Source: Stegostoma tigrinum (Eukaryota). Taken from it: a DNA stretch of 64,000 bases. This document shows positions 1 through 62,175 of this stretch, piece by piece (the stretch's first letter is position 1; each line of letters opens with the position of its first letter). Made by a program: the position numbers and the translations under genes. The notes beneath the pieces were generated by a model, which searched no databases, had not been told where the DNA came from, and saw nothing but the letters and a program-made list of their open reading frames with translations. The DNA is taken from NCBI RefSeq assembly GCF_030684315.1, contig NC_081360.1, positions 9,156,599 to 9,220,598 of the forward strand, given 5' to 3'.

Positions 1-496
1 TAAAAGCTCGCTCAAGGAGCCAGCAGAGACACAGCAGGCCGAATGGCTTTCATTCATCCTTTATGATTCCTGTAGAGCCTGGTCAGAAATAACCCTCAGG
101 ACATCACAAAGGTGTGGAAAAACATATCCCAAACAGGGGCATGAGGACTGGGAGCTGGTGCTGAATGCTCAGTTGACAAGTTGGGACCTGTAAAGGTATA
201 TGAACAAGAAGAGAAAGGTAAAGGGGCTCACTATTTTAAGAGACCTTTTTTAATCTTCTTAAATGAAAATCTACGAGATCTTCTTATCCATTTTGGGCAC
301 ATGCAAAATGTTTCAAGAAATTCAGTTTCAATACACAAAAAACTGCCACTGAGTCATTTTTAATGCTAACAAGTTACAGTTTTAAAAGATAACAATTCAT
401 CAGTTGTGCTCTGTTCCCTAAGGTCCCACCTCAAGTCCTACAAAACATACTCCAGTGACTTATGAGAGAACTGCAGTCAAGGGAGTTTACATTGGC

Positions 497-693
497 AGTT
501 CGAAGGCAATGTTGGAGTCAGAGATAACAAGGTATGGAGCTGGAGGAACACAGTGGGCCAGGCAGCATCAGAGGAGCAGGAAAGCTGGCGTTTTGGGTCT
601 GAAGAAGGGTCCCGACCAGAAATGTCAGCTTTCCTGCTCTTCTGATTGCTGCCTGACCTGCTGTGTTCCTCCAGCTCCAAACCTTTTGTTGCC
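497..693. mobile_element. Palindromic Penelope-derived mini-element with hammerhead-like core
   Basis: Arm ggagctggaggaacacag...gaggagcaggaaagctg and its reverse complement surround CTGAAGA-AGGGTCCCGACCA-GAAATGTC (599-626). Confidence 0.75.
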
Positions 694-1454: not shown

Positions 1455-3189
1455 AACAGGAAAAGGAGGGGCATCTAAGGCCTAAGCTCCTTAGATGAAT
1501 AAAAATAATGAGGTTATAATGAGGCAGGGAGAAAACATTAGATGAGGAAAAGGAGAAATCGAGTAAAGAACAAAGCTGACTACAGAAACTACAGAAGTAC
1601 CTAGAAGGTGTAAAAGTGGGATTAACAGGGACAAAGGGAATTTACAGATTAGCAGTTAACATCAAACAGAAGTCAAAACTGCTTCAAAATCTGTAAATAA
1701 TAAAACATGAGTGTTGTGGCCCAGAGGCATCAAAGAGGAGATATTCGTGAAGAGACAAAGGTCATGGCTGAGATCCTAAATGAAAACTTTGAGGAGGAGG
1801 TTGCTGTCAAAGTGGCAATGAAAGAGGAGGGAATAGTGAAGTTAATCAGATAAAAATAGATATACAGAAAACAAAAGGTTAGCAGTCTCAAAAGCAGGAA
1901 AGCCACCCAGTCTCAATGAGTTTACATCCTATATAACTGAGAGAAGCAAAGGTCAAAACAGCAGGAGCTCTGACCACAATCCTCCCGCATCCTGCTTGCA
2001 ATATGGGGATGGTGCTCGAGGACTGGAGGATTACAAATGATTATAAAAGGGGAAGGGAGTACACCCAGCAATAACAATTCAGTCTACCCAATGTTGAAGA
2101 TGAAGAAACTTTTAGCAATAATAAACCTTAACAAATTTAATTTGCATTAGGAAAGATATGGATGAATAAATGGAAGTCAAGTTTATTAATGTGACTGAAG
2201 TCCTTGAAATAACAAGGAAGGTTAAGTGTAGTAAGCATACACAGATTTCCAAGACATAAAGCTCCATAAGAACTGTGGACACTGGAAATCAGAAACCAAA
2301 GTAGAAATTGTTGGAAGAACTCAGCAGGTCTGGCAGCATATGTGGAGAGAAAACAAGAGATAAGGTCTACTGACCCTTCATCAGAACTTCTTCAGAACAG
2401 TTCTGTTGAACTCTACGTGAGTGAATGTGAGACCTGCTAAGGTCTTCCAGCAATTTCTGTTTTTGCTTGGATACATTTGATTTAGTTCCACATGACAGAT
2501 TTCTTACTGAGATTAATACACATGGAATTAAAGAAAGTTTGGTCAACTAACTGCTGGACTAAAAAAGCATAAAGATATAGAGATGAATAATTATTTTCAG
2601 ATTGGAAGCAAATATACAATGGTGACCCCGAGGGGTCAGTATTTGGGAACACTGATCTTTCTAATGTATAGTAATGACCTGTTCTTGTGTATACAGGGCA
2701 AAGAATTAAAGTCTGTAGATAACATGGAAATGTCAATGTAGTGCACAATGAAGGTAATAATGAAGGACATAGACACTGGTGAAATGAGCAGACACATAGA
2801 CAATGAAAATTAGCACAGAGGACTGTGAAGTCCTACATTATTTGTACTAGCGCAAAAAATAAAGAATAATAAACTAATTGACTCAATTTTTAAGAGGGTG
2901 AAGAAGCAGAAAGCTGGGGACACCTGTGCACGAATGTTTGAATGTGTCAGCACAACTAGCGGAGCATGTTAGGAAAGAAAACTAATTTCCTGGCTTTATG
3001 AGTTAAACAATGAGGTTTGAGAGCAAGGAAACATCTCTTGACAGAACTTCAGCTGGAGCTTTTACTCCAGTTTGGGCAATAATGTTGAGCAGATTTAAAC
3101 TTCCATAAAGTAAATCATATCAATATTTACATAAATAAACAGGTAAAAATGCATAGGGCTATGAGGAGAGAGAACAGAACTAGGAATGA
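1455..3189 (+). mobile_element. Old CR1 LINE ORF2 remnant, interrupted by later insertions; 3' tail resumes at about 5412-5492
   Basis: Degenerate CR1 motifs (gaggactggagg; aatggtgaccccgaggggtcagtatttggg, resembling GVPQGSVLG). Confidence 0.65.
2270..2467. mobile_element. Fold-back Penelope-type mini-element (second subfamily) inside old CR1
   Basis: agaaattgttggaagaactcagcaggtct pairs with agacctgctaaggtcttccagcaatttct; contains acccttcatcag (reverse of CTGATGAAGGGT). Confidence 0.6.
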
Positions 3190-5395
3190 GATAATATTTT
3201 CCGGACGCTGGAGAATCCGAGATAACAAGGTGTAGAGCTGGATGAACACAGCAGGGCAAGCAGCATCATAGGAGCAGGAACGCTGACGTTTCGAGCCTAG
3301 ACCCTTCATCAGAAATGCGGGAGGGGAAGGGGGTTCTGAAATAAATAGGGAGAGAGGGGGAGGTGGATAGAAGATGGATAGAGGAGAAGATAGGCGAAGC
3401 GTAGACAGACAAGTCAAAGAGGTGGAAATGGGGCCAGTAAAGGGTAAGAGGGTAGGTGGGGAGGTAGGGAGGGGATAGGTCAGTCGGGGAGGACGGACAG
3501 GTCAAGGGAGCGGGATGAGGCTAGTAGGTAGGAAATGGGTGTGCTGCTTGAGATGGGAGGAGGGAATAGGTGAGAGGAAGAACAGGTTAGGGTGGCTGGG
3601 ATGAGCTGGGCTGGTTTTGGGATGCGGTAGGGGGAGGGGAGATTTTGAAGCTTGTGAAGTCTACATTAATACCCTGAGGCTGCAGGGTTCCCAAGCAGAA
3701 AATGAGTTGCTGTTCCTGCAACCTTCGGGTGGCATCATTTTGGCACTGCAGGAGGCCCAGGACGGACATGTCATCTGAGAAACAGGAAGGGAAATTGAAA
3801 TGATTCGCGTCTGGGAGGGGCGGTTATTTATTGCAAACCAAGCGTAGGTGTTCTGCAAAGCGGACCCCGAGCCTCCACTTGGTTTCCCTGATGTAGAGGA
3901 GGCCACAACGGGAACAGCGGATGCAGTATACCACATTAGCAGACGTACAGGTGAGCATCTGCTTGATGTGGAAAGTCTTCTTGAGCCTGGGGTGGGGGTG
4001 AGGAAGGAGGTATGGGGGCAGATGTAGCACTTCCTGCGGTTGCAGGGAAAATTGCCAGGTGTGGTGGGGCTGGAGGGGAGTGTGGAGTGGACAAGGGAGT
4101 CATGGAGAGAGTGGTCCTTCCGGAAAGCAGACAAGGGTGGGGACAGAAAATGCCTTTGGTGGTGGTGTCGGATTGCAGATGGTGGAAGTGTCAGAGGATG
4201 ATGTGTTGGATCCGGAGGTTGGTGGGGTGGTATGTGAGGACTAGGGGGATTCTTTTCTGTTTGTTATTGCGGGGACAGGGTGTGAGGAATGAGTTGTGGG
4301 AAATGCAGGAGACACAGTTGAGGACATTCTCGATGACTGCGGGGGTGATATCGTGGTCCTTGAAAAACGAGGACATCTGAGATGTACGGGAGTGGAATGC
4401 CTCATCCTGGGAGCAGATGCAGCAGAAGCAAAGGAATTGGGAAGAGGAAATGGCATTTTTGCAGGAAGGTGGGTGGGAGGAGAAGTATTCTCGGTAGCTG
4501 TGGGAATCCGTGGGCTTGAGATGGATATCGGTGGTTGCCCGAGATGGAGACAGAGAGGCCCAGGAAGACAAGAGAGATGTTAGAGATGGTCCAGGTGATC
4601 CCTCCTCCGTACCTACACAGGCCCTAAACCCCACTTCTTCCTCTGTTACATAGATGACTGTATCGGCACCGCCTCGTGCTCCCACGAAGACCTCGAACAT
4701 TTCAGCCACTTCACCAAAATCTTCCACCCCAACCTTAAGTTCACCTGAACCATCTCTAACACCTCTCTCACCTTCCTGGACCTCTCTGTCTCCATATCGG
4801 GCAACCACCTAGAAAATGATATCCATTTCAAGCCCACCGACTCCCACAGCTACCTTGTATACACCTCCTCCCTTCCACTCTACTGTAAAAATGCCATCCC
4901 CTATTCCCAATTCCTTCGCCTCTGCCACATCTGCTCCCAGGATGAGGCATTCCACTCCCGTACATCTCAGATGTCCTCGTTTTTCAAGGACCACAATATC
5001 ACCCCCGCAGTCATCGAGAATGCCCTCAACTGTGTCTCCTGCATTTCCTGCAACTCATCCCTCACACCCTTTCCCAGCAATAACAACAAAAAAAAATCCC
5101 CCTCACCCTCATGTACCACCGCACCAATTTCCGGATCCAATGCATCATCCTCTGACACTTCCGCCATCCGCAATCCGACCCCACCACCAAAGACATTTTT
5201 ACGTCCCCACTCTTGTCTGCTTTCCAAAGGGACTACTCTTTCTGTGACTCCCTTGTCCACTCCACACTCCCTTCCAGCCCCACCAGATCTGGCACTTCTC
5301 CCTGCAACCGCAGGAAGTGCTACACCTGCCCCCACACCTCATCCCTCACCCCCATCCCAGGCCCCAAGAAGACTTTCCACATCAAGCAGATGTTC
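3190..5395. mobile_element. Penelope-like retroelement (RT + GIY-YIG), inverted composite insertion, decayed
   Basis: Minus segment 3190-~4596 with GIY-YIG (CTSANVVYCIRCSRCGLLYIRETKWRL..RFAEH) and 3' terminal hammerhead; plus segment ~4597-5395 with RT motif FLCYIDDCIG; 16-bp TSD ACAGAACTAGGAATGA at 3174-3189 and 5396-5411. Confidence 0.9.
3285..3312 (-). ncRNA. Minimal hammerhead ribozyme motif (Penelope-associated)
   Basis: Minus strand CTGATGA-A-GGGTCTAGGCTC-GAAAC-GTC. Confidence 0.65.
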
Positions 5396-7892: not shown

Positions 7893-8022
7893 CAGGATGA
7901 AGGGTCTAAGACTGAAATGTCAACCTTCCTGCTCCTCTGCTGCTGCTTGGCCTGCTGGGTTCGTCCAGCTCTATGCCTTGTTATCTCAGATTGTCCAGCA
8001 TCTGCAGTTCCTACTATCTCTG
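7893..8022 (+). mobile_element. Penelope 3'-terminal mini-element with decayed hammerhead
   Basis: gatgaagggtctaagactgaaatgtc...ccagcatctgcagttcctactatctct, homologous to 27208-27335. Confidence 0.75.
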
Positions 8023-9059: not shown

Positions 9060-11260
9060 TTCATACAGTGCACTGTTCTCAACAGTATGTCCTCAATGTA
9101 CATCTGTTTCCCACTTGTATGTCATGTCCAGATGCTATCTCTATATGTAGTAACATTCTTGGCAGACACTTGGAAGCTGATAGAAGCAGTTTGAGAAAAA
9201 AATTGTTGTGAAATGACATCACTGTCACTTTGTCCCTCTCAAACTGGTATCAATTAAACTGTTCACAATACAGGACAATCACCAGGATCTTTTCTTAATC
9301 TGAGTGTAATGTTGTTCTGTTTGCATTTGTTCCTTGGATGTAAATATAACTAATTGGTCTTGCCACATAAAGTTGGCATCACAGTGCAAAGTAACTTCTT
9401 CACTGACGTTGTAGCACCACAGCAGTTTGACTTCAAAGTCAAATGTGAAAATTCTGTGTGTTCTGGGCTCCAGCAGATCCTAGAAGCAAGCTTCCATTGT
9501 ATTCTGATGACAAATTAGAAAAGAAATATGCCTGATAGTTCAGGAATCCAACAAAACACGAGACTGCCTTCACATTGTTGATCACTGTTATAGCTCCCAC
9601 CATGTCAGGTTCAAGATGAAGTCCTCTGAGGTCAGTACAAGATCAACGTACTTGACTTCAGGGATTTGCAATCACATTTTTTACTTGCTCATATTGCGAG
9701 ACTTCTCTGGCAGTCGTATCAGATTCTGATCATGATCAGCAATGGTTTCTTCCATGGCTGTGTCTCCAAATCTATGCGCTAGCAGATCATCCATCCACTA
9801 TTGCTGCAACTTATGGAAGTCACCGACTATCTCATGCTCGTTGTGTTGATACTCTTCTCAAGCTGTGGAAATGCCAAACAGCATACACAACCAGCTGCAA
9901 CATCCAAATAGCATCTAGAGTGTAGTTAGAAAACTACCTAGAAAATAACTCCATTTGCCAGTAACCATCCTTCACATCAATTTCTAATGAAGTCCGTTGC
10001 CTTAGCAAGTTGAGGCAACATTTCCTTCCATGGTTGACATGGGGCAGTGAGATCTCTTCAAACTTTTACTGTGATCATTTGGGTCCATGGATGCTCTCAG
10101 CTTTCCAGATATCTTCACCACTGCCTTTCTGATAATCTGGTCTGTAGGTGTTGTCATTCCTAGCTCCTCTCTCCTGTCTCTCAAGCTGACTTGAAGACAG
10201 CTGGAACTCTCCACACCAGACGCTGGGTCAGTTTCTTACTCTCATCTACTTTGACATGATATTCACCAGGACAACATTCTGCGACCTGGTAAAACATCTT
10301 CAAAATATTTTAGGATCTCTTCAGCACCGGATGGTTTTGTGGCCTGCAAAGAACTTCAGATTTCTTCGGAGATTGTAGAACTGCCGATACTGGAGTCATA
10401 AATAATACAGCGTGAAGCTGGAGAAGTACAGCAGGCCAAGTGGCATCACAGAAGCAGGAAAGTTGATGTTTCGGTTCAGTACCCTTCTTTAGAAAATTCC
10501 TTTGGTCATGTTTAGAATTCTATGTCTAAGTCTTAGAGTTGCTTCAGTTGATGAAAGCTCAATTTTGCTAAATATTTACTATTAGGAACTCAACATCTTC
10601 ATTCTACCCATTGCATTGAGCTCCCAGCTTCAGTTGTCCTCTTGGCATAAGGAATGATCTACCATGTAGTCTCAACCTTACCTTTGAGGGTTTCCATTTT
10701 GAATCACTATCTTGAAAGACTTTGAAATTATGTGAAGCTTGATAATGTGGCATGAAGCACTGGTATCCATCTGACACTTCACTTTGACATGATGTCTGCT
10801 TTAGTCGCCATCTGAACAGTCACAAACTATTTGTCACCAGCCCCTCTACACCCCCACCCATGCCCTCCAACCCGGATTAGACAATGCCAACATGTTTGTA
10901 CGGTGTTAAATGATTTTGCAGACTCACTGGCTGACATCTTTATAAACTCTACTTTGGCACCTTACTAGCTAAACACCTGCATGCAAAGTGATTCCACTTC
11001 TTGCAGTGAGAGCCCCACTTTCCTTGTTCTGCACACGCCCCTTTTCTCTTGTGATATTTATGTTCAATCTCTGCCCTTGATCATTCAGCTGGCTTGTTAG
11101 CAAATATTCCTTTCTTTTCTCAATCTGTTGTTCTCATTCAGCCTGGAATGTCTCTTCATACAATGTAAAATCTTTTCTGTTTCCTATTAATGCAACCAAG
11201 CTGATGATTTACAAACTCAAGTTTCTGAACACTTCATTATCTTTCTTGAAAGTAAGTTTC
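9060..11260 (-). mobile_element. Decayed Ty3/Gypsy LTR-retrotransposon internal region (gag-pro-RT)
   Basis: Zn-knuckle-like ..GSHCKKWNHFAC (~10980-11030), protease-like VKCQMDTSASCHII (~10740-10785), RT-like GKLRASMDP, GYWQMEL and MLFGIS (~9865-10110); many stops and frameshifts. Confidence 0.75.
10368..10494 (-). mobile_element. Penelope hammerhead mini-element nested in Gypsy remnant
   Basis: gaagctggagaagtacagcaggccaag...gatgtttcggttcagtacccttctttag; degenerate flanking direct repeat atttcttcgg/attcctttgg. Confidence 0.7.
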
Positions 11261-13814: not shown

Positions 13815-13932
13815 TTACATATTTTTTCTTATCAACTGTTCAGAGATTTTGTTACACACCTCTGAAGCATGTGGGACTTGCACCTGGGACTCCTGGTCAA
13901 GAGACTGGGCAACTAACACTGCATCACAAGAT
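13815..13932 (-). mobile_element. tRNA-derived SINE fragment (same family as 37345-37455)
   Basis: Reverse B-box-like gggacttgcacctggg; homology to the plus copy at ~37345. Confidence 0.5.
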
Positions 13933-14759
13933 TATGTGACCTGCCTAGGGCCACTTCAACAAAAGAAAGACATGCCGTGCCTTCTACCATACTTCAACTG
14001 CATTAATGGTAAAGATCCATTCTATTTCCAATATACAGAAGGTGTGGACTTAGAGTTGCCAACTCTGATTGAATGTATCTCTGGAGGTTTCATCACATGA
14101 CTTGCCCCATGCTCCAGCCATCCTTTACCCAATACACCCACTCTCATGACCCACTGCCACAGAAGCACTCGGGCAGCACCACTATATGCAAGGACAGAAT
14201 GCCTGCAGTCCATGGTTTGCACTGTTTTTTTCAGAAGGGAGGAGAATGCTTCCCAAGTGTGGGAGGAGCCAAAACTGAGGACGAAATGTACAAAATAAGT
14301 GCTGGAGAAATTCAGCAGATCTGGCAGCATCTGAGGGGACAGAAACAGTTTCAGGTCCAGAATGGCTGAAATTTTATTTCACATTTCCAGAATCTGCAGT
14401 GTTTTGTTTTGATGACAGGCTATAAATATTAGATTGTCATTTATAAAGCCAATTGTTAAAAGAAAAACACCTTTACTCAGAGACAAAAAAATGAGAAAGT
14501 GGATGAAACAAAAAAACTTACATTTCTGAAATAAAATTAGTTGATGAGGAAAGAGGGTGCAGAATGATTTATTGAGATAAGGAAGATAAAACAGGACAAC
14601 AACCTTGGCAGATTAATTAGTTTGAATGGCCTGTTTCTGTGCTGATTAAAGATATGTCAGTGCATTGCACAGAAATATAATCACCAATTATATTCTATTC
14701 TACTTCAGCTGCAAAGGTGGGTCTCCTGTTGTGTGTGGTCATCCCTTTAAACAAAGGGA

Positions 14760-16427: not shown

Positions 16428-16710
16428 TATAATCCCTATAGTGTGAAAACAGGCCCTTCAGCCCAAGTCCACATCAACACTCACAGCATCACACCCAGAC
16501 CCATCCCTCTAAACTACACATCCCTGAAAACTATGGGCACTCCACCTAGTCCGCACATCTTTGGACTGTAGGAAGAAACTGGAGCACGCGGAAAAACCCA
16601 CACAGACACAGGGAGGAAGTGCAAACTCCACACAGACAGTCGCCTGAGGGTGGAATCAAACCCTGGTCCCTGGAAGCAGCAGTGCAAACTACTGAGCCAC
16701 TATGCTGCCC
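16428..16710 (-). mobile_element. HE1/V-SINE
   Basis: Reverse tRNA head (actgagccactatgctgccc, ggaatcaaaccctggtccct) and V-domain-like gcaaactccacacagacag. Confidence 0.85.
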
Positions 16711-17689: not shown

Positions 17690-17880
17690 AACACAAACAA
17701 AGTTGCTGGAAAAGCTAAGCAAGTCTAGCAGCATCTGTGAAGGAGGAAACAGAGTTAACGTTTTGGGTCCAGTGACCTTTCCTCAGAAGGGTCTGTTCTG
17801 CAGCCAGGCCTGCTGCATTTGTCCAGCAAGTTGGCTTTTGTTCCTGATTTACAGCATTCACAGTTCTTTTGGTTTTTATG
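17690..17880. mobile_element. Fold-back Penelope-type mini-element (second subfamily)
   Basis: Minus core CTGAGGAAAGGTCACTGGACCCAAAACGTT (~17757-17786); inverted arms; short tgttgtc flanks. Confidence 0.65.
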
Positions 17881-18282
17881 TATTGTTGTCCAACTGGTTG
17901 CTGCACCAGATCCCACTGTGGGAATGGAAATGTGCTCGTGTCCTCATTTCTCACTCCTTTTCCAGGACAAACCTCTTTTAAGCTGCAATGCTCATAACCC
18001 TCAACCCTGTATTTTTATAAACCATCAAAAGATATTTGGAAGATGTAATATACAACAAAGTAAAATGATAAAGCAGAAAAACAGCAGGATTAACTTTAAC
18101 ATATCTCAAAGGCCAGAAACCTCAGTATCAGTATCATACCTCACCCAATATTACTCTGCAATTATTAAAATTAGACAGGGTGTAACAGTTATATTTGCTC
18201 CCAATTCTGTAAATTTTCATTTGAGTTGGTTCTGTTGAAACTATTTGCTCCAAATGCTTTTTCCCTGAGCCGTGTTACTTAC

Positions 18283-24229: not shown

Positions 24230-25774
24230 CTGGAAAGAAAGAAAAGCCAGCTCTGTTGAACAGTTGTCTCAAAAACCACTAACAGCAGTTTGCAATCACA
24301 TAGCACCTTCACAGCATGGACACATCTCTCGCACGTTGCTTAATTATTTGTTTGGTGTGGTTTAAATATAAACAAGCATCAATAGTGCTTTCTAGAAAGC
24401 CATATGACCAAAAATGTTGACAGCTCAAAAACAGTCTTCAGTATAAGCTTCAACATGTGAAAACAAAGAATTAGACTATAAGTGCATGGAAAATGGGCGA
24501 GTGACTCAAGGGTATACTTGATGTTGCTTCTCCAGTATTGAAACAAAACATGTATGCAACGAACATGTTTCTTGCTGTGTAAAGGTCATTAACCTTCATA
24601 CATGAATTTCCAAAAGGTACGCTTAACATTGACCTTCTCATGCCAGAGATATATATCTGGAACTTTGGCACAAAAATAAATTTGCCTTCTAGCTCTGAAT
24701 TTTCGAAATCAGCTTGACAGGTGAATCTCTCCAGTGAAAGCACAAATTCACGTAATGTGCATGTGTGTCAGCCTTGGCTCAGCTCTCAGCACTTCTGGTT
24801 CAGAAGGCTGTGAGTTAAACAGCAGGCAAAAATTTCAGTGCGACAAGGCTGCCACATAGCCTGAGGTGTCAGTAAGACCCCTTTGGGATTTAACATTTTG
24901 CATTTATATCACACCTTTCACAAAGTAGGACATCCCAAAGCAGGCCACCAAAGAGTGATCAAATAAAGATTGACACTAACCTTGGAGGAGATTTTTGGAC
25001 AGGTGGACAAAAGCATGACAAAATAATGGGTTTTAAAGCTTCTTCAAGGTGGGAAGGGGCTTGGAGAAATAGATAGAGAGGGAGAGAGATAGGGAGAAGG
25101 AACTCCACAGTTTTGGGGCGTATGACTGCACATACTAAAGCCGACAGCAAGGATAAAGAATTTGGCAGATGGTTAAGAGGACAGAGTTGTAAGAATACAA
25201 GAATGCTGAAATCTTGGAAAAGGGGGTTACAGAACACAGTGCAAAAAAACACATCCTTTATCTTATTTTGGAGTGGAGGCTGAGAATCAGAAAAAAATGG
25301 ATATATTTTAAAAAAGGGGGACACACGAGGATCTGTCTGTAGTTTTCTAAACATTGTTACTTTTGGATTTACTACACTTAGAGGAATTAGGGCTTCCTCA
25401 GTGCCTTCAGGGCAACCTCTGTCCATAGACAGATCTTTTGATTGGCTTTTCAATTGGCATTAGTCAGTGTGGGTTCAGGAGAGCTCAGCGGATAGAAACA
25501 ATTAGCTGCATTTGGGTATTTCTGAAGAGGGATCAAGGGGTGCTCACCGGTATAATAGAGGTCATCAGAAATTGGTGAGCATGACGCGGGCTGGGGTGCA
25601 TCATCAGCCCATAAAATGTTATTTTAATTTACTAAATTTCTGTTTTGTTAAATAATCCACTAAACTGTTAATCAGAGCTTTTCTTTTTGTTGTAGTGCCC
25701 CAGCAGATGCTCTTTAACTTGTTTTCTGACTTTCTGTTTAATAGAGTAGAGAGAGCTGTACTACATTCATGCCA

Positions 25775-27335
25775 ACACAACAAAATGTGAGACTGGATGA
25801 ACACAGCAGGCCAAGCAGCATCTCAGGAGCACAAAAGCTGACGTTTTGGGCCTAGATCCTTCATCAGAGAGGGGGATGGGGTGAGGGTTCTGGAATAAAT
25901 AGGGAGAGAGGGGGAGGCGGACCGAAGATGGAGAGAAAAGAAGATAGGTGGAGAGAGTATAGGTAGGGAGGGGATAGGTCAGTCCAGGGAAGACGGACAG
26001 GTCCGACGGACACCTCCTCCCACCCACCCTCCTGCAAAAATTCCATCCCCTATTCCCAATTCCTCCGCCTCCGCCGCATCTGCTCCCACGACAAGACATT
26101 CCACTTCCGCACATCCCAGATGTCCAAATTCTTCAAGGACCGCGACTTTCCCCCCACAGTGATCGAGAACGCCCTCGACCGCGTCTCCCGTATTTCCCGC
26201 AACACGTCTCTCACACCCCGCCCCCGCCACAACCGCCCAAAGAGGATCCCCCTCATTCTCACACACCACCCCACCAACCTCCAGATACAACGCATCATCC
26301 TCCGACACTTCCGCCATCTACAATCCGACCCCACCACCCAAGACATTTTTCCATCCCCACCCCTGTCTGCTTTCCGGAGAGACCACTCTCTCCATGACTC
26401 CCTTGTTCGCTCCACACTGCCCTCCAACCCCACCACACCTGGCACCTTCCCCTGCAACCGCAGGAAATGCTACACTTGCCCCCACACCTCTCCGCTCACC
26501 CCTATCCCAGGCCCCAAGATGACATTCCACATTAAGCAGAGGTTCACCTGCACATCTGCCAATGTGGTATACTGCATCCACTGTACCCGGTGTGGCTTCC
26601 TCTACACTGGGGAAACCAAGCGGAGGCTTGGAGACCGCTTTGCAGAACACCTCCGCTCAGTTCGCAACAAACAACTGCACCTCCCAGTCGCAAACCATTT
26701 CCACTCCCCCTCCCATTCTTTAGATGACATGTCCATCATGGGCCTCCTGCAGTGCCACAATGATGCCACCCGAAGGTTGCAGGAACAGCAACTCATATTC
26801 CGCCTGGGAACCCTGCAGCCTAACGGTATCAATGTGGACTTCACCAGTTTCAAAATCTCCCCTTCCCCAACTGCATCCCTAAACCAGCCCAGTTCGTCCC
26901 CTGCCCCCACTGCACCACACAACCAGCCCAGCTCCTCCACTCCACGCACTGCATCCCAAAACCAGTCCAACCTGTCTCCGCCTCCCTAACCTGTTCTTCC
27001 TCTCGCCCATCCCTTCCTCCCACCCCAAGCCGCACCCCCATCTACCTACTAACCTCATCCCACCTCCTTGACCTGTCCGTCTTCCCTGGACTGACCTATC
27101 CCCTCCCCACCTATACTCTCTCCACCTATCTTCTTTTCTCTCCATCTTCGGTCCGCCTCCCCCTCTCTCCCTATTTATTCCAGAACCCTCACCCCATCCC
27201 CCTCTCTGATGAAGGGTCTAGGCCCGAAACGTCAGCTTTTGTGCTCCTGAGATGCTGCTTGGCCTGCTGTGTTCATCCAGCCTCACATTTTGTTGTCTTG
27301 GATTCTCCAGCATCTGCAGTTCCCATTATCTCTGA
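25775..27335. mobile_element. Young Penelope-like element: inverted 3'-terminal copy (25775-~26003, minus) plus GIY-YIG body and 3' end (~26004-27335, plus)
   Basis: 289-aa open frame with Cys/His linker and GIY-YIG (NVVYCIHCTRCGFLYTGETKRRLGDRFAEH...RRLQEQQLI...NGIN); ~230-bp near-identical inverted arms; 16-bp TSD TACTACATTCATGCCA at 25759-25774 and 27336-27351. Confidence 0.93.
27206..27233 (+). ncRNA. Minimal hammerhead ribozyme motif
   Basis: CTGATGA-A-[GGGT-CTAG-GCCC]-GAAAC-GTC; palindromic ACGT stem III; GUC cleavage triplet. Confidence 0.7.
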
Positions 27336-27522
27336 TACTACATTCATGCCATAATTGTCATAGGAATGTTTGATGGGAATATTGTAAAGGAAGCTTTACA
27401 TTCAGTTTAAAAGAGTAGGAACAACCTTTGATTGGTCAGGTTGCAGTTTAACACAGACCCTGTAAGGTGGAATGAAAACAGAGAAGGCAGGAGACCCAGC
27501 AGATTGTAGGATCAATACTTCT

Positions 27523-27959: not shown

Positions 27960-29270
27960 CTGTGTCCAGTCAGGTCTCACAGGGGTCAGTGTTGGAGCCC
28001 TTGTTGTTTGTGGTTTATATAAATAATTTGGTCTTTGAATGTAGGTTACCATAGAACCTGTACAGTGTGGAAACAGGCCATTTGGCCTATACAGTCCACA
28101 CTGACCATGCCTCTAAAGAGTAGCCCACCCAGTCCCACCCCCTATCCTATACCTGCATATCCCACGGCTAAACCACCTAGCCTGCACATCCCTGAACACT
28201 ATGGGCAATTTAGCATGACCAATCCACTAACCTGCATACCTTTTGACTGCAGTAGGAAACCAGAGCACCTGTTGGAAATCTATACAGACACGGGGGGGAT
28301 GTGCAAACTCCACACAGTCACCCGAGGGTGGAGTTGAACCCAGTTCCCTGGCTCTGTGAGTCAGCAGTGCTAACCACTGAGCCACCATACCATTGATCAG
28401 TTAAGTTCACAGATGAGACAAAAATTGGTGAGGGAGTAAACAATAAGGGGGATAGATTTAGGCTACAGGTGGATATGGATGGGCTGGTCAGATAGCCAGC
28501 TCAATGGCAAATGGAATTAAATCTGGATACAAGTAAAGTTGGGCTGGACAAACAAGATAAGGGAATAATGATGAATGTTAGAACCTTGGGAAGCACCAAG
28601 GATCAGAGGGACCTTGGTGAGCCTGTACACTAGTCCCGTAAGGTATCAGGATGGGTGGATAGAGTCGTTAAGAAGATATACCAGACAGATGTCTTTATTA
28701 GACAAGATGTAGAGTTGACAGCAGGGTGGTTATGTCCGAACTGTATAAAAAATTGGTTAGGCCACAGCTAGAGTACTGTGGACAGTTCTGGAATTTACAT
28801 TGTAGGAGAAAGAGAATTGCACTGGAGAGGGTGCAGCAGAGATTTACCAGAATTTTGCTGGGGTGGAAAGTTTCAGTTACAAAAACAAGTTGAACAGATG
28901 GGGTTGTTTTCCTTAGTGCACAGCATATTGAGAGGGGCTGTGACAGAATTTTGTAAAACTATGAGGGGTACAGACAGTGTAGAAAGAAAGAAACCTTATT
29001 CCGTTGATGGGAGGGCTGAAGGTTTAGAGGAGATGTGGGGAAAAAAATAATTTCCAGACAATGGTGGGAATCTGGAACTCATGCCTGTAACGGTGATAGA
29101 TGCTGAAACTCTCACAATATTTAAGAGGCATTTAGACCCCAAGGCGTATAAAGCTATGGGTCAAGTGATGGAAAATAGGATTAGAATAGTTAGGTGGTTG
29201 TTTGTGAATGGCGTGAACCCAATGGTCCAAAGGTCCTTTTTCTGGGCTGTAGATCTCTGTGACTATAAAG
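27960..29270 (+). mobile_element. Decayed CR1 LINE interrupted by a V-SINE
   Basis: caggggtcagtgttggagccc (QGSVLEP) before the SINE; cagatgagacaaaaattgg (ADETKI) after it; CR1 3' end near 29250. Confidence 0.75.
28050..28391 (-). mobile_element. HE1/V-SINE
   Basis: gcagtgctaaccactgagccacc head; gtgcaaactccacacag core. Confidence 0.88.
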
Positions 29271-31205: not shown

Positions 31206-32161
31206 CCTCCTGGGGAGCAGAGTTCCATGGGTAGATTTCTAATGGGAGTTAAAACCCAAGCAAATCTGAGACGAACAAATTTGAGAACAGCCCTAGAGTA
31301 GTGTGTTATTCTCATCCAGTAATTCAGACATGACATGACTTACAAGAATCTTCGGCACGAAACACTGAATTTCCCCCTCTCACTCAACCATTGATCAGAC
31401 ATTTAGGACAGGGCTGAGGAGGAAGGTCTTCACTCAGACACTTATCAATCTTTGGAATTCTCTTACACTCCCCCCCCCCCATCCCCCACTGAGGCTTGTA
31501 GGTGTTCCTTCTCCTAAAGTCGAAGCAGGCAGAATTTTGAACTCTCAGAATCATGGGGCTTCTGAGGGGTGTGTGGGACTTCGTGCTTGCTATGGAATAT
31601 ATTTACTGGGGAAAGTAATGTGGTCAGCCAAGTGGACCATAGGATATGAGTTCCCTGATTTTGGCTGTTAAAAGACTCTGTGTCATTCAACAGGGAAACA
31701 GGCCCTCCAGTCCAACCAGTCTTTACTGAACATAATCTCAAACTAAACTAGCGCAGAGATAGTAGGAACTGCAGATGCTGGAGAATCTGAGATCATGAGA
31801 AAAGTTGGGCAGCTACAGGTGGGTAGAAGTATTAAAAATGTTGGGCAGATAATAGTTCACTTGGATAGGACAACAAAACGACTACACATCGTGTGCCCAA
31901 TTTACATCTAGAGACTCGAATGAATTGAATATGAGGTGAAATGTGTAACAGGATTTAGAGTAGACACTGCTTGTTTTATGTTACCAATCTGACAACAACA
32001 ACCCAAACATTAGTTTAACCTTTCAAAACTGAAGTGCTTGCAGCAGCTCATTTGTCTTTTCTCCTAAGCTATGTAACACTTTCTCTGACCTTGTGCACTC
32101 TCCAAAGTGAAGCCAGTATCATGTCTTTGAGTGAACAAAGCCATTTGATGGAAATACATAC

Positions 32162-34084: not shown

Positions 34085-34183
34085 AGTTAACACAGTGTGG
34101 AGCTGGAGGAACACAGTAGGACAGGAAGCGTCAGAGGAACACGAAAGTTGATGTTTTGAGTTTACACCCTTTTCATCAGGACC
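34085..34183 (-). mobile_element. Penelope hammerhead mini-element with 11-bp TSD
   Basis: ggagctggaggaacacag...gatgttttgagtttacacccttttcatcag; TAACTTCTCTC at 34074-34084 and 34184-34194. Confidence 0.78.
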
Positions 34184-36904: not shown

Positions 36905-37238
36905 GGGTGGCTTGGTGGTTCAGTGGTTAGCACTGCTGCCTTACAGCACCAAGAACACAGGCTCAATTCCAGCGTTGGGTAACTGTTTGTGTTGAGTTTG
37001 CACACTCTCCTCTCATCTGCGTGAGTTTTCTCCAGGTGCTCCGTTTCCTCCCATAATCCAAAGTTGTGCAGTTTAGGTGGATTGGCCATGCCCAATTGGC
37101 CCATAGTGTCTAGGGATATGCAGTTAAGTGGATCCGCCATGGTAAATGTGCGGTTTCTGGGGCTAGGTCAGGGTGATAGTCTCTTTGGAATGTTGATGCA
37201 GGAATGGCCTGCTTCGGCGCTGTGAGGATCCTACGATT
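36905..37238 (+). mobile_element. HE1/V-SINE
   Basis: tRNA-like head gtggttcagtggttagcactgctgcc...ggctcaattcc; gagtttgcacactctcc core. Confidence 0.88.
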
Positions 37239-37344: not shown

Positions 37345-37455
37345 TACAATACAGTGGTAGTGTCCTTAGCTCAGAATCAGAAGGTCTTGGTTCAAGTCCT
37401 ACCTGTTCCAGAGCTGCGCCATAATATATCTGAACATGTTGATTAAAAATATGTA
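37345..37455 (+). mobile_element. tRNA-derived SINE fragment
   Basis: cagtggtagtgtcc...ggttcaagtcc A/B-box-like sequences. Confidence 0.55.
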
Positions 37456-37498
37456 TAAAAGAGTCTGGAAGTCAAGTGGACTTCTACTGAATAGTTAA

Positions 37499-37600
37499 TA
37501 AAATGTGAAGCTGGATGAACACAGCAGGCCAAGCAGCATCTCAGGAGCACAAAAGCTGACGTTTCGGGCCTAGACCCTTCATCAGAGATTTTTAACCTCT
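37499..37600 (-). mobile_element. ~100-bp Penelope hammerhead mini-element with 18-bp TSD
   Basis: CTTCTACTGAATAGTTAA at 37481-37498 and 37601-37618; body nearly identical to the reverse complement of 27203-27291. Confidence 0.88.
37558..37585 (-). ncRNA. Minimal hammerhead ribozyme motif on the ERBB4 sense strand
   Basis: Exact reverse complement of 27206-27233. Confidence 0.7.
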
Positions 37601-38388
37601 CTTCTACTGAATAGTTAACTGGTCTCATTTGTAGAGAGAAAGCAGAACTAACATTTTGGGTTGGAACATTAACTTTGCTTTCTCTCCACAGATGTTGCCA
37701 GATCTGCTTTGTTCTTCCAGAAATTTCTGCTTTTATTTCTGATTTCCAGTATCCACAGTTCTTTGGTCTTTTGTCTGTGGAGGTGCGGAATTTGCTGGGA
37801 AGGGCTGGGGGTGAGCCGTTTCCAGGAATCCTCTCAAAGCGAACTTAGTGCCCTAGGGCGAGGTCAAATAGCTTTATGCTACCCTCAGAGTGAAGGGCGG
37901 CTCTGGTCCTACACAGTCAGACAGCCTGCCAACACTCACTGTCTAGAGATACACAGAAAGGCCAGAAGGGCTCCCTGATGGAACTGAGAGTCAGCACCGT
38001 TAGCAAAGGAAGCAATCTTAGTACACAAAGGTAGAAAAAGAACAAAAGAGAAATTGATGACTGAGAAAAAATGCATGACTGGAACAAGTGTGCTGTGATG
38101 TGCAGTGTCTGGCATGTGATTTTTTAATTTGTTTTCCAGGATAGATTTAGTTAAGGTTCAGTGTTTTTCATCACTGGCACAATTTAAAGATTGATAACAA
38201 ATTGATAATGTCCTTGACAGAAAGTAAAACCAGTTTTGCAAGATGACAATAATCTGTGTCTATCTCTGTTTCAAATGAAAGACTTTACTTGTAAGACAAC
38301 GCAGACATATGTAGACACTCACAGACCCCTGTACAGACACATACTACAGGTGTACAGACAATTTCACTGATGCACCCATACATACTCA

Positions 38389-43114: not shown

Positions 43115-43712
43115 CGATGTGCTTCTGAGGCTTTATAAAGCTCTAGTTAGGCCCCATGTAGAATACTGTGTCCAATTTTGGGCCCCACACCTCAGGAAGG
43201 ACATACTAGCCCTGCAGCGTGTCCAGCAGAGATTCACACGGATGATCCCTGGAATGGTAGGTTTAACGTATGATGAACGGCTAAGGATCCTGGGATTGTA
43301 CTCATTAGAGTTTAGAAGGTTGATGGGAGATCTAATAGAAATGTAAGATAATGTATGGCTTAGAAGGGGTGGACACTAGGAAGTTGTTTCCGTTAGGCAG
43401 GGAGACTAGGACCCGTGGGCACAGCCTTAAAATTAGAGGGGGTAAGTTTAAAACTGAAATGAGACGACATTTCTTCAGCCAGAGAGTGGTGGGCTTGTGC
43501 AATTCATTGCCACGGAGTGCAGTGGAGGCCGGGACATTGGATGCCTTCAAGGCAGAGATCGACAAATTCTTGATATCAGAAGGAATCGAGGGCTACGGGG
43601 AGAGTGCAGGGGAGTGGAGTTGAAATGCCCATCAGCCATGATTTAAATGGCGGAGTGGACTTGATGGGCCGAATGGCCTTATTTCCACTCCTATGTCTTA
43701 TGGTCTAATGGC
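43115..43712 (+). mobile_element. CR1 LINE 3' fragment
   Basis: LYKALVRPHVEYCVQFWAPHLRKD...FFSQRVVGLCNSLP; tatgtcttatggtc tail. Confidence 0.9.
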
Positions 43713-44509: not shown

Positions 44510-45095
44510 ATTAGTGATACTGTGACATGATTTAAATGTGCAAAGTTACTGTACTGAATGTGAAACCAGTCAGTGTTATTGTCATGAATGTGAAATAGAT
44601 CAGTATTACTGTAAGAAATATGAAATAGGCCAAGGTTACTGTAATGAACATGAAATGGGTCAGTGTTACTGTAATGAACAGGAAATGAGCCAGTGTCACT
44701 GTAAGGAACAGGAAATGAGCCAGTGTTATGTAATGTACATGAAACAGCCAGGATTTTCCTGCAATGAACTTGAAATGGGCCAGTGTTGCTGGGCCAATAG
44801 TGAAACATGATCATGTTTATTGTAAAGAACGTGATACGCGTCAATGGTGCTGTAATGATCGTGAAATTGTCCAGTATCACTGTAATGAACTTGAAATATG
44901 CCAGTGTTACCATAACAACTGTGAATTGAGATAATGTCACTGCAATGAATATGAACTGGGTTCACAATTATACCATACTTCATTTGCAATGGATCACTGT
45001 TACTACAGTGACCTTGATGCGCATCGGGCTACAGTAATGACCTTGAAATGGATTAATGAAACTGTAAAAAGCTCGAGATTGGTCAATGTTACTTG
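44510..45095. repeat. Degenerate 30-bp minisatellite (~18-19 units)
   Basis: Consensus approximately CAGTGTTACTGTAATGAACATGAAATGGGC; units start at 44571, 44601, 44631, 44661, 44691 and so on. Confidence 0.88.
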
Positions 45096-45225: not shown

Positions 45226-45929
45226 CTGCAAAGAAAACCAAAGTGGTAATCCAAAGTGGGAGCACACCATTGTCAAACTTCCCTTTCAACAGAACATCCA
45301 ACATTCAGCATCTGTTTTCTGCTGTTAAATTACAGGCACACTTTAGAGGAATGATTTCACAATACGCTGGGAGCATGTCTTAGTGGGAGATAAATACATT
45401 TAAATGTTTCCAATTAATCTTTCCTACACCTAGTTACTGTATTCCCTGTGGATTGGCAAAATAGCTTTACATGAAACTTTTTTTCATGAATCACTCTTTA
45501 ACATTAAAAGCAAACTATTATTGAAAGCAAAGATGGGGCTTTTAGGAGATTGGCTCCTGCTCCCGCAATGTGCCCAAACATATTCACCATATTTAGACAA
45601 ACCTCAACTTTTTTTGTACACAAATCTAAAACACAGAATTTGTTTACATGTAAGTAAAGCAAGGCTGTGAAAATTATTGACAATTCAGGTGTCAGAAGCT
45701 GATGAGATAAATATTCTTACTGAGAAGTGTACTGAGAATTCGACAGGAGAAGATGAACAAATCACTACGGGGCCTCAAATTTAACTTATGCAGTAATCAA
45801 GGTACACACCACATCCACACGTGAGAGTAGTTAGCACATATATTTGTTACTCAACTACATTTAGGAGATCTTGTGGCACATCCCTCCCTAATAGTCAGAA
45901 GCTCCATTCCAAGGCTTTTTGTAAATATA

Positions 45930-46206
45930 AAATCCCCACAGTGTGGAAACAGGCCCCTAGGCCCAGCAAGTCCATACCAACCCTCAGAGCATCCCCTTAT
46001 AATCCACCTAATCTACACATGTGTGAACACTACCGGCAATTTAATATGGTCTGCATATCTTCGGACGATGGGAGGAAACCCGTAGGAAACCAACGCAGGC
46101 ATGTGGAGAACATGTAAACTCCGGACAGACAGTCACCAGAGGGTGGAATTGAACCCTGGCTCCTGGCGCTGTGAGGCAGCAGTGCTAACCACTGAGCCAC
46201 CATGTC
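45930..46206 (-). mobile_element. HE1/V-SINE
   Basis: ggcgctgtgaggcagcagtgctaaccactgagccacc. Confidence 0.88.
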
Positions 46207-51009: not shown

Positions 51010-51790
51010 GCAGAGTCATTGAGTAATACAGCATGGAAACAAGCCCTTCGGCCCAAACTGGTCCATGGTGCCCAGTCAGCTAGTTCCAAATGCCTACATT
51101 TGGTCCATATCCTCCCAAACCCTTCCCACCTATGTACCTATCCAAATGCTTTTTAAATGTTGCTATTGTACCTGCCTCAACCACTTTCTCTAGGAGCCCA
51201 TTCCATTTACGTACCACTCTCTGCATGAAGAAGTTGCCCCTCTGGTCCTTAGATCTTTCCCCTCTCACCGTAAACCTGTACCTTCTAGATTTCAATTCCC
51301 CATTTTTGGCATTCATCCTGTCTATGCCCCTCATGATTTTATACACTCTGGAAGATCATGCCCCATTCTCCTATGTTCTAAGGAATAAAGTCCTATGCTG
51401 GCCAGCCTCTCCCTATATCTCTTACTAGTCCTGGCAACATCCTCTTCAATCTTCTTTGCACACTTTCCAGTTTAACGATGTCCTTCCTACAACAGGGAGC
51501 CCAAAACTGTACACAAAACTCCAAGAGTGGCCCAACCAATGACTTATACAACTATAAAATATTGTCCCAACTCCTACATTCAATACCTTGACTAATGAAG
51601 GCCTGTATGCTAAATGCCTTCTTCACCACCCTGTCTATCTATGTTGCCGCTTTCAATGATCTATGTATTTGTATTCCTAGGCCCCTCGGTTCCAGAATAC
51701 TCCTCAGGGCCTTACCACTTGCTGTATAAGTCCTACTTTGATTTGACTTTCCAACATGCAACACCTCACACTGCACAAACGTGCAAAACT
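51010..51790 (-). mobile_element. CR1 LINE 3' fragment
   Basis: MYKIMRGIDR...GNFFMQRVVRKWNGL; CEVLHVGKSN. Confidence 0.88.
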
Positions 51791-52620: not shown

Positions 52621-53054
52621 TTAAGCACAAACAAATTATTTCTTTTCTGCTGTGAACTGAATTTCAATCTGTTTTAATTCAATACTGACAAGTTGGTCCA
52701 GAGGTATGGTATATTGGTGCCTTGTTGGGATACGGTGAAGTTTGGAAGGGTGCAGGTAATTCCCCATACATTATTCACTGTGATCCTATTGTGGGGGCAG
52801 AGTGAAAGAGGTGGGAATGCACTAAATCAAAAAGGTAAATCAGACTGCTTCACATCCAAGTAATAAATGGAAGTTGGGCAAACGTGCCTTATCCAACTCT
52901 GAGAAATGGATTGCACTGGACTTGCTGTGTGAATAGGCTGTAAAACTATAAATGGTCAACCAAACTCACCATTTTCTTTAAGCATTTAGTAGAATGCTAT
53001 CTCATGAACATGCGTTTGAAGAGGGTTTGGATATAGTACATCCTGTTTCCAAGT

Positions 53055-53149
53055 CTGAGGCAGGGTCACCAGACCCGAATAGTTAACTGTGTTTTCTCCT
53101 TCATAGATGCCGCCAGGCCTGCTGAGCTTTTCCAGCAACTTTGCATTTG
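53055..53149 (+). mobile_element. Hammerhead mini-element (second subfamily) with ~15-bp TSD
   Basis: Begins exactly at CTGAGGCAGGGTCACCAGACCCGAATAGTT; flanks ATCCTGTTTCCAAGT (53040-53054) and ATCCTGTTTCTATGT (53150-53164). Confidence 0.75.
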
Positions 53150-54900
53150 ATCCTGTTTCTATGTTAGTGGCATTTCTACTAACAGCCGTGCTTTCAGAGG
53201 CAGGGTTCTGTTATTCGTGACCATGTCTCCAGTTACAGAGAAACAAACTCAGGAGATATCTGCCTGGGGTAACTGCGGTCCCTCACTAGCCAATGTCCTG
53301 GCAGAGCACAACAAGCCCAACTTTCTTTCGGTGCCAAATTTTAAACTTGTTTCTTCCCTCGGCAGACATCAACCAGCTGTTTTTTTCTGATTGACAGGAA
53401 GGTTTGCAGCATTCATGGTTTTCTTCTTGGCTGAGTACCTCCTTTCCCAGCCAAAATAATCCACGACTGAAATTGTAAAATTTGCAAGTTTAGGGATTTC
53501 AGAGAGTGCAGGGAAGCTTAAGTACAGCAAGTATCTACATGGTCTTGTTAAAAGAGGGAAATGAAACTGTTGGATCAATTGACATGGAATGCTCACCACA
53601 GAACCTGATATCAGAACAGGGGACAGGGGAAATAAATTTGCTTTTCCATCACCTTGAAGTGAAATCAGCTTTCCCAGCCTCTCGCAGAGTAGCGCTGCAA
53701 CTAATAATGCAACAGCAAAGAGTGGAGGAATTATTTTCTAAAAAAGGGTGTAGAACATATGAAGGGTAAGTATTTGACACCAAGAGTTAGCTGTCCCTAG
53801 TCAGCTGTCTCTCCATCACCCATGAAAGGTTAAGAGTGAAACTTACAAGGCGGAGGGGGGGGCAGTCAGGCAGATTGTACATCATTCAAACATGCTAACG
53901 GTATGTTTCACGGTAAGATACATCCAAGCAGCTTATATTTTTCCTGACAAAATGACCCAAGATTGAAATGTCCAGCCTAGTGATGTGTATGTGCATGGAT
54001 AGCCAGGACTGACCGAATTAAAGCAATTATTTTAATAGATAAATTTAAAACAAGCATCTTAAAATACAAAATATACCTAAAAATGTTCTGTTTCACAAAC
54101 ACTGCCTTTGCACAATAGTCATTACTAAGATTCTATTTTTGGATCATTAGTTAAATTCCTGCATGCTATTTTAACAGTCACTGCACATCTTAAATGGAGA
54201 ATTAGAGTCTTTTCAACTGTTAGATCTACTGAAAAATGTTGCCCATTGGAGTGAATGCTAGGTTTGATTTGTTTTCATTCATTTTGACTAACACAAGCTC
54301 TTTGAGGAAATAATTCATGAAATCCTTATAGACATACAATATTTGCTTCTTATTACCCAGTCCTCACCACTTGTTCAGTGATTAAATCAATTGAGGCTGC
54401 AGAACTAAAGATGCTAAATTACAAAGCAAACCCTCAGAATAAAAAAAAACTCAGCTGGTCACTTGTAATTAAAAACAGACAACACATCCAGCAAAACTGG
54501 GTCACAGATCTGATATGTTAGCTCAGTTTTTCTCTCCAAGTTTCTGCCTGACTTGTCATTTCTACTCGTATTTCAAATTTTCAACATCCACAGTATTTTG
54601 CATTTGCACAAAAAAAAATTATTTGCGTTTGATAAGGCTGCTTGTTCATTGTCAATGGAATGTATACATTTGGTTAGTCATTATGTCCATATGGCCATCC
54701 AAACACGTGCATTTACCATTTGTGTCAAATGGCCTTATTTTATGCATTGGTTCAATTAAACCATAAAAAGTGTTCTTGCAATTGTATTTAACAAGTCATA
54801 TTTAACTTGTGATTAAAAGTCAAGAGTATATGAACAAAGGATATCAATGGGCCCACAAAGTAAATGCATCTTGGCAAGATAATTTATGAAAGGTACTCAC

Positions 54901-55115: not shown

Positions 55116-55460
55116 TAGAATCATAGAATCCCTACAACGCATATACGGGCCTTTTTGACCCATTGGGCCCATGCCACCCATCTGAATAGCATCCCACCCA
55201 GACACACCAACCCCAACCTCGTAACCCAGCATTTACCACAGCTAACCCACCTAGACCACACATCCCTCAAAACTATCAGGCAATTTAGTGCTGCCAATCC
55301 ACCTAATCTGCACATTTTTGGACTGTGAGAGAGAAGCGAAGCACCCAGCAGAAGCCCACGCGGACACAAGGAGAAAGTGCAAACTTCACACAGAGGTTAG
55401 AATCGAACCCGGGTCTGTTGCGCTGGGAGGCGGAAATTCTAACCGCTGCAGTGCCATGAC
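55116..55460 (-). mobile_element. HE1/V-SINE
   Basis: agaatcgaacccgggtc B-box; ctgcacatttttggactgtg core; atagaatccctaca tail. Confidence 0.85.
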
Positions 55461-61969: not shown

Positions 61970-62175
61970 GTCAATACAATGTGGAGCTGCAGGAACACAG
62001 CAGGTCAGGCAGCATCGGAGGAACTGGAAAGTTGATGTTTCAGGTTGGAACTGATGAAGGGTCCTGACCTTTAACATTGACTTTCCTGCTCCTCTGATAC
62101 TACTTGACCTGCTGTGATCTTCCAGCTCCATATTGTATTGGGCTTTGACTGCAGCATTTGCAGTTCTTGCTATCT
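61970..62175. mobile_element. Palindromic hammerhead mini-element with 15-bp TSD, inserted in an old LINE 3' end
   Basis: Arms caatacaatgtggagctgcaggaacacagcaggtc and gacctgctgtgatcttccagctccatattgtattg around CTGATGAAGGGTCC (62051); flanks CCTTCAACATTCATT (61955-61969) and CCTTCAACTTTCATT (62176-62190). Confidence 0.82.

Follow-up and report, generated by a model that had tools for sequence, protein, structure and literature searches.

The Neptune and Nematis types of EN+ Penelope-like elements (PLEs) are defined by a CX2-5CxxC linker together with a CCHH motif (PMC8557442), and vertebrate PLEs are assigned to Neptune and Poseidon in a preprint (10.64898/2026.07.22.740005). For PAc, a Poseidon element of Anolis, PMC11167929 reports two internal start sites of reverse transcription (RT), one at each border of the tail and both early in the ORF, just behind the hammerhead. 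In the same system, cutting and extension take place on both target strands, and insertion persists when the ribozyme is mutated. In D. virilis the start of the Penelope transcript lies in the pseudo-LTR, whose 3' copy is able to act as a promoter; the promoter is described as internal and likened to TATA-less LINE promoters, with the start at 371 and an intron at 416-491 (PMC2377424). A TATA/Inr pair was noted in the Adineta pseudo-LTR (PMC3846280). A non-LTR retrozyme is described as tandem units with a complete hammerhead in each (preprint 10.64898/2026.07.22.740005; PMC7229834).

The insertion studied here lies at 37481-37618 of the window, by which we mean the whole 64-kb stretch of DNA that was analysed. 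It consists of the following features.

37481..37498 (+): left copy of the 18-bp TSD
37499..37588 (-): tail-less PLE-derived segment that begins 3 nt before hammerhead C3 and runs to the inner 3' end
37558..37585 (-): minimal type I hammerhead core, predicted from features as in PMC4209133
37589..37600 (unstranded): non-element filler of 12 nt at the 5' junction; homology ends at 37588
37601..37618 (+): right copy of the 18-bp TSD

A sequence-only reading had described this locus as a 102-bp unit, with an intact ribozyme core and the Penelope 3' terminal segment, bracketed by a perfect 18-bp direct repeat. The repeat is indeed perfect (37481-37498 and 37601-37618); its 18-mer has no third occurrence within the 64-kb window, and its score was equalled by 1 of 250 random position pairs in the null of the direct-repeat search. 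The unit itself needs correction, since only 90 nt are element-derived and 37589-37600 is filler. Similarly, a Penelope 3' segment is present, but it stops about 38 nt short of the outer 3' terminus of the long copies described below. Between 37497-37588 and positions 27203-27294 of long copy A, 90 of 92 bases are identical (2 of these bases overlap the repeat). The filler can fold back onto the element start according to a folding prediction, and the folding of 6 segments revealed no excess stability (z from -1.1 to 0.9).

The ribozyme core was correctly read as intact and lies on the minus strand, with C3 at 37585 and the cleavage-site C at 37558. It is composed of CUGAUGA, an extra A, a helix II of 4-5 bp, GAAA, a loopless palindromic ACGU and the GUC triplet. 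The minimal hammerhead features described in PMC4209133 are found in it: the conserved core, the extra base before helix II, the G-C closing pair and the palindromic 15.2-16.2 are all present, but helix I in the target subfamily has only 2 bp, compared with 4-5 bp in the PLE type. Helix II is 89% paired, and covariation in alignment A1 was not above shuffles (413 of 500 shuffles were as high). From the sequence, an ATG inside the core here reaches a stop at codon 14. An Rfam scan, which had been proposed as a check, did not retrieve the ribozyme: over the whole window, the 4 matches at E<=1 all stayed below gathering and included no hammerhead, while for 201 nt the best hammerhead model scored 15.9 bits (E=2.3) against a gathering value of 56.3. 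Intact cores occur in the target copy, long copies A and B, and arm 599. The core is broken in 8 of the 12 arms examined and in 7 of the 9 short arms that reach it; for arms 25866 and 7894 this was seen on inspection.

Two long copies represent the parent family in the window.

25775..27335 (+): long copy A, a 5'-truncated PLE with a 16-bp TSD (25759-25774 / 27336-27351)
3190..5395 (-): long copy B, an older 5'-truncated PLE with a 16-bp TSD (3174-3189 / 5396-5411)

Long copy A is preceded by an inverted tail-less arm (25775-26003) and then contains an RT-thumb/linker/GIY-YIG remnant from 26014, the 3' UTR, the hammerhead at 27206 and the tail. In long copy B, a tailed arm (3190-4598, -) stands head-to-head with another arm (4602-5395, +). 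The latter ends within the endonuclease region, right at the TSD, which suggests priming at an internal non-canonical site. The 340-codon frame of copy A matched Pfam GIY-YIG with E=0.0014 and 19.4 bits, below the 22.6 cut-off, and a CX4CX2C linker and a C-x2-C...H...H (CCHH-type) motif were read by eye in its protein. A search with this protein retrieved 75 longer homologues (best E=4.6e-84), the majority of which contain RVT_1. One of them is named from Chiloscyllium punctatum (64% identity, with 39% of the query covered), in agreement with a host among the cartilaginous fishes. The linker points to the Neptune/Nematis type of EN+ PLE, and Neptune is likelier than Nematis as the parent family because of its occurrence in vertebrates.

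The hammerhead in the pseudo-LTR, the optional tail, the inverted 5' arm and the TSD expected of a PLE are all found. A full-length ORF is not, as the RT core is missing from both long copies: copy A matches homologues only from residue ~471-523, and copy B from ~405 in several frames. Therefore neither long copy is autonomous. They had been proposed as the likely autonomous partner, and what stands of this proposal is that they mark the parent family. By tblastn, the unit was unmatched in all 75 PLE homologues, and when the 50-aa open frame that crosses it was searched against proteins, none of 37 candidates proved to be a relative. Copy A also contains a stop-free 176-codon frame (26824-27354, +) that spans its 3' UTR, hammerhead and tail, and a 39-bp tandem (26857-26969) that is shorter in copy B.

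For a census of the family, an HMM was built from 12 window segments, the search seeds beginning at the hammerhead, and nhmmer was run on the window and on the reversed window. At E<=5 there were 28 matches in the window versus 1 on the reversed window. The 22 matches with E<0.05 form 16 loci in the 64-kb window, 14 short and 2 long. The figure of about ten copies in the sequence-only reading was too low. Short copies make up ~3% of the window bases. Besides the target, they are as follows.

34085..34183 (-): single-arm short copy, tail-less, 11-bp TSD, broken core
53050..53149 (+): single-arm short copy of a divergent subfamily, tail-less, 10-bp TSD (13/15 extended), broken core
7893..8022 (+): single-arm short copy with tail, TSD not found, broken core
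10368..10495 (-): single-arm short copy with tail, TSD not above chance, broken core
61970..62175 (unstranded): two-armed inverted copy, 14/15 TSD; tail-less minus arm (stop ~+17) and tailed plus arm (stop 0)
496..693 (unstranded): two-armed inverted copy, TSD not above chance; plus arm with intact core, stop -1, tail-less; minus arm with partial or decayed tail, stop +14
17690..17885 (unstranded): two-armed inverted copy of the divergent subfamily; tail-less arm stop ~-2; 7-bp repeat not above chance
2248..2470 (unstranded): two-armed copy of the divergent subfamily; tailed minus arm stop -1 to -4; partner decayed
37625..37781 (unstranded): decayed copy of the divergent subfamily, adjoining the right TSD of the target; plus arm from ~+20, short inverted partner by eye only
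31754..31793 (-): tail-only fragment of ~40 nt, TSD not found
14290..14410 (unstranded): decayed two-armed copy (HMM)
16845-16940 (-): decayed single match (HMM)
54499-54594 (+): decayed single match (HMM)

By HMM matches, at least 5 short loci are head-to-head two-armed, with a sixth by eye. The insertion at 31754-31793 is almost only PLE tail, that is, the stretch between the two RT start sites. An exact-pattern scan of bacterial and archaeal genomes for stray copies returned 0 matches.

The TSD search covered 17 boundary pairs at the 16 loci and was compared with 250 random pairs. Clear TSDs were found at 6 loci: the target (18 bp), 34085, 53055, 61970 and both long copies, whose perfect 16-bp TSDs were absent from the earlier claim. 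The three other repeats of that claim not called degenerate were confirmed, namely 11/11 at 34085-34183 (2/250 null pairs as good), 14/15 at 61970-62175 (1/250), and at 53055-53149 a 10/10 core (3/250) that becomes 13/15 once extended. At 10368-10494, a degenerate repeat does exist (best 9/11), but it is no better than chance (p about 0.6), and no TSD was found at 7893-8022, in agreement with the reading. These two belong to the other 11 boundary pairs, at which direct repeats were not above chance. The A+T content of the TSDs is 60-72%. In length, the TSDs of the short copies (10-18 bp) agree with those of the long copies (16 bp).

Two 3' end classes are found ~38 nt apart. Seven of the 15 printed 3' junctions are tail-less and lie at ~+86..+92 from C3, seven are tailed and lie at ~+126..+135, and one has a partial or decayed tail; a poly(A), A-rich or simple-repeat tail was found at none of the 15. 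In long copy A, 61970, 17690 and probably 496, one arm is tailed and the other is tail-less, and we take each arm to be a cDNA with its own priming event. In copy B the second arm starts further 5' than the first arm, and this, together with its end in the endonuclease region, is not obtainable by fold-back copying. The TSDs, the two 3' end classes and the inverted arms support the earlier claim that the short units are independent retro-insertions by the PLE machinery. The short units are real, separately inserted 95-135-base end pieces of PLEs.

The 5' ends were compared over 20 arms in this single window. These exclude arms 2430+ and 14368+, the short partner arm at 37630 and the arm of copy B that ends internally; where an arm was decayed, its stop was taken from the end of the alignment or HMM match, in part by eye. 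The 5' boundary had been proposed to lie non-randomly at the ribozyme core, and it is in fact sharper than claimed, with 9 of the 20 arms stopping at -3..+2 of C3 (3 of the 9 are from the subfamily without a long copy in the window). Eight arms stop earlier (+8 to +89), while three run on (-136, -1192, -1286). The stop rate is 0.15/nt in -3..+2, compared with 0.007/nt just before and 0.001/nt beyond, and 9 stops in 6 nt were matched by 0-10 of 50,000 simulations under 6 length models. Since the clustered arms include 4 tailed and 5 tail-less ones, position, not length, sets the stop. A TSD or an inverted partner arm marks the boundary of 7 of the 9 clustered stops; the remaining two have flanks with 17 and 19 pyrimidines in 40 nt, versus 32 in the long copies, and are without the pyrimidine-rich stretch found upstream there. 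A boundary at the GUC cleavage site, which the sequence-only reading had also denied, is rejected, as +27/+28 is without stops among the 20 arms. Two further candidates are disfavoured: a spliced-RNA origin, with the acceptor at -22 and no upstream exon common to the short copies, and, by inference, a G-quadruplex stop, as the stops come before the G-rich cDNA tracts.

We lean towards the reading that the short units are run-off cDNAs, by-products of ordinary PLE retrotransposition, our belief and our doubt being about evenly balanced. The units carry the marks of PLE integration: the 10-18-bp TSDs, the two 3' end classes and the head-to-head arms. RT would start internally at two sites, some 90 and 130 nt past the beginning of the hammerhead, a step established for Anolis Poseidon, and both nicked target strands could prime, giving two-armed copies. 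The pseudo-LTR promoter would start the RNA 3-4 nt before the core, 30-31 nt past a TATA-like box:

27172..27178 (+): TATA-like TATTTAT, -34 from C3, long copy A
3341-3347: TATA-like motif, -35 from C3, long copy B

TATTTAT, which we take to be a working TATA variant, is the only A/T run of at least 6 nt in the 360 nt upstream in copy A; in copy B the motif is one of two. The usual TATA-to-start spacing is 30-31 nt, and the box at -34/-35 would place the RNA start at -4/-3, where the arms stop. The motif can also be read as part of a 3' splice acceptor with its AG at -22/-23. The template could be the full mRNA, or short RNAs that any truncated copy makes from its own promoter. As the RT start is only 90-130 nt downstream, priming near the RNA 5' end would give a cDNA of exactly this size, 95 or 135 nt, which would run off the template and integrate, much like retroviral strong-stop DNA with a failed jump. 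Lacking the upstream box, most short copies should be inactive from the time of insertion and decay neutrally, the ribozyme being a passenger whose cleavage would be unneeded.

Besides the splice-acceptor reading, several points count against run-off. The start site is deduced from motif spacing, and the element here is Neptune-type while the in-vitro data are from Poseidon. In D. virilis, with its promoter likened to TATA-less ones, the intron end maps to helix I, which puts the start there ~120 nt before the ribozyme (PMC4209133, PMC2377424). Also, an RNA hairpin predicted in copy A (-11.4 kcal/mol) has its 5' foot exactly at C3, and a structural stop is therefore a live rival. In that rival, the RT is primed at the 3' copy of a long RNA and falls off at the hammerhead 5' edge because of RNA structure, a bound PLE protein or the C-rich tract that follows, with no transcript start there. 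The enzyme would be the same, and the short units would again be by-products. The hairpin, formed by the CUGAUG strand and the strand past the cleavage site, is predicted to end exactly at C3 in A, B and 34179, the stops of five more arms fall at +8..+20, within or beside helix II, PLEs are reported as highly 5'-truncated (PMC8557442), and palindromes at inverted junctions are known (PMC3846280). However, the RT would meet the hairpin from its 3' foot (+30), where no stop pile-up is seen; the corresponding hairpins in the cDNA have little stability (-0.9 to -4.4 kcal/mol), and the RNA hairpin is not predicted in the divergent 17786 and 53055, decayed copies that have the same stop. We consider such a truncation hot spot rather unlikely. 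Ordinary random 5' truncation, seen through a detection bias towards the conserved hammerhead, could be suspected because the search began there and because solo motifs have been ascribed to truncated PLEs (PMC4209133). It is hardly credible given that at most 10 of 50,000 simulations matched the clustering, that so many clustered stops (7/9) have a TSD or partner arm as their boundary, and that only 3/20 arms extend beyond -6.

Two rivals remain. The sequence-only reading held that the ribozyme module propagates itself as a SINE- or retrozyme-like family, and one may picture short master loci, modules of ~100-135 nt copied in trans by the PLE protein. This would agree with the ratio of 14 short to 2 long loci and the fixed 5' edge at the ribozyme boundary, and with a divergent subfamily (2248, 17690, 37659, 53055) that is without a long copy in the window. 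Animal retrozymes have been argued to be PLE derivatives and are present in a chondrichthyan (preprint 10.64898/2026.07.22.740005), pseudo-LTRs suffice in cis (PMC3846280), and Chlamydomonas has non-autonomous PLE derivatives (PMC8557442). Nevertheless, in a tree of 15 arms over a 128-column alignment (2430, 14290, 14368, 16845, 17793, 31754 and 54499, decayed or tiny, were omitted), the short copies split into several sequence subfamilies, the target copy, with its 90/92 identity, grouped with long copy A (support 99/97), and monophyly of the 12 short arms was rejected (p-AU 0.0144). A Pol III A box within one mismatch of the consensus was found in 0 of 12 arms, with 3 isolated one-mismatch B-like matches and hence no A/B box pair; there is no poly(A), the candidate promoter lies outside the unit, 7/9 cores are broken, and direct tandems, of which a retrozyme has two or more units, occur at 0 of 16 loci. 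With no tandems and with the SINE hallmarks missing, the units fall outside the definitions of both non-LTR retrozymes and SINEs. They work like trans-mobilised PLE ends, and a separate SINE or retrozyme lineage is not supported. Short masters are thus unlikely as a general explanation, although one may exist for the divergent subfamily. The short units could also be solo pseudo-LTRs, left where full-length insertions flanked by direct 95-135-nt repeats collapsed through recombination to one unit between TSDs. Solo pseudo-LTRs are on record from Adineta, with recombination or deletion given as their cause (PMC3846280). The Adineta solos are described there as having no TSDs, the repeats here are short, a full-length copy is absent from the window, and an RNA start near -4 would still be needed, which makes this origin very improbable.

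The run-off reading can be extended, tentatively and with more doubt than belief, to one in which the ~95/135-nt unit is the PLE counterpart of the retroviral R region and the short copies are strong-stop cDNAs left after failed jumps. An RT coming off the ribozyme edge would normally jump to the 3' copy of the unit, by which the upstream promoter would be regenerated and pseudo-LTR tandems would arise; PMC2377424 saw no obvious mechanism for regenerating the PLE pseudo-LTR promoter. Such copies may rank with the most common interspersed repeats in cartilaginous fish, and self-propagation as a ~100-bp ribozyme element may since have arisen in the divergent subfamily. In the literature found by our search, 'strong-stop' is absent from the Penelope-centred papers.

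Other repeats were also noted. To the left of the target TSD, on the strand opposite to the unit, 37355-37455 (+) has a tRNA-like head with A- and B-box-like motifs by eye and is 76% identical over 70 nt to 13816-13884 (-); it is probably a tRNA-derived SINE fragment, and no tRNA genes were found in the window. A dispersed ~300-bp repeat has at least 6 copies, 66-80% identical (16419-16712, 28050-28388, 36913-37148, 45919-46204, 55116-55448, 62684-63033). A LINE-like RT fragment at 6026-7119 (Pfam RVT_1, E=2.6e-14) has an inverted partial copy at 14761-15391 (93.5% identical) and further relatives near 43221-43490 and 51430-51553, and a 30/60/90-bp minisatellite lies at 44541-44960. The two-armed copy at 547-667 scores as the plant miRNA precursor MIR533 (E=0.0037, far below gathering). 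Hairpins of this two-armed kind could enter small-RNA pathways, or be mistaken for miRNA genes during annotation.

Should the window, with its 16 loci in 64 kb, be typical, the short copies would by extrapolation make up a considerable share of the genome. A sharp 5' end pile-up at the ribozyme edge would map an RNA start in DNA and make the model of run-off and template jump testable by counting ends in one shark assembly. The pile-up would also explain why most animal minimal hammerheads are solitary and decayed, and it would warn against labelling solitary hammerheads as SINEs or retrozymes. Our literature search, with subscription papers mostly outside its scope, found neither shark PLE hammerheads nor a fixed 5' stop, and the repeat may carry a Repbase or Dfam name.

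When compared with known systems, the elements here share with Neptune-type PLEs, as described in PMC8557442 and PMC3846280, the GIY-YIG domain, the CX4CX2C linker, the 3' minimal hammerhead, an optional tail of 30-40 nt, inverted arms and short TSDs. The 5' truncation reported for those PLEs is variable, whereas here we see a fixed stop at the ribozyme 5' edge and mostly ~100-bp insertions. Anolis Poseidon PAc (PMC11167929) likewise has two 3' ends bounding a tail downstream of the hammerhead, and A/T-rich targets, and its two-strand priming would explain our two-armed copies; it belongs to another PLE clade, and its ORF starts at helix II, whereas the core ATG here soon meets its stop. Schistosome SINE-like hammerhead elements (PMC6765202) are also short, hammerhead-bearing and non-autonomous, but are described as a promoter followed by the ribozyme, while the copies here have no Pol III boxes and a minimal, mostly broken core. 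Non-LTR retrozymes (PMC7229834; preprint 10.64898/2026.07.22.740005) resemble them in being non-coding, with a type I hammerhead, PLE pseudo-LTR ancestry, dispersed monomers and chondrichthyan occurrence. They differ by their tandem arrangement and circular RNA; the units here form no tandems, and their ends are RT start sites and the ribozyme 5' edge. The metazoan minimal hammerheads of PMC4209133 have the same motif features, are mostly single with some 100-700 bp apart on opposite strands, and are ascribed there to truncated PLEs. The window density of 4 intact cores in 64 kb would, if typical, exceed the 4,000-9,000 per genome given for coelacanth and Xenopus in that source. Tails, inverted arms, retrozymes derived from PLEs, and PLE hammerheads that stand alone or opposite one another are already known, and it is the fixed 5' end pattern that is apparently new.
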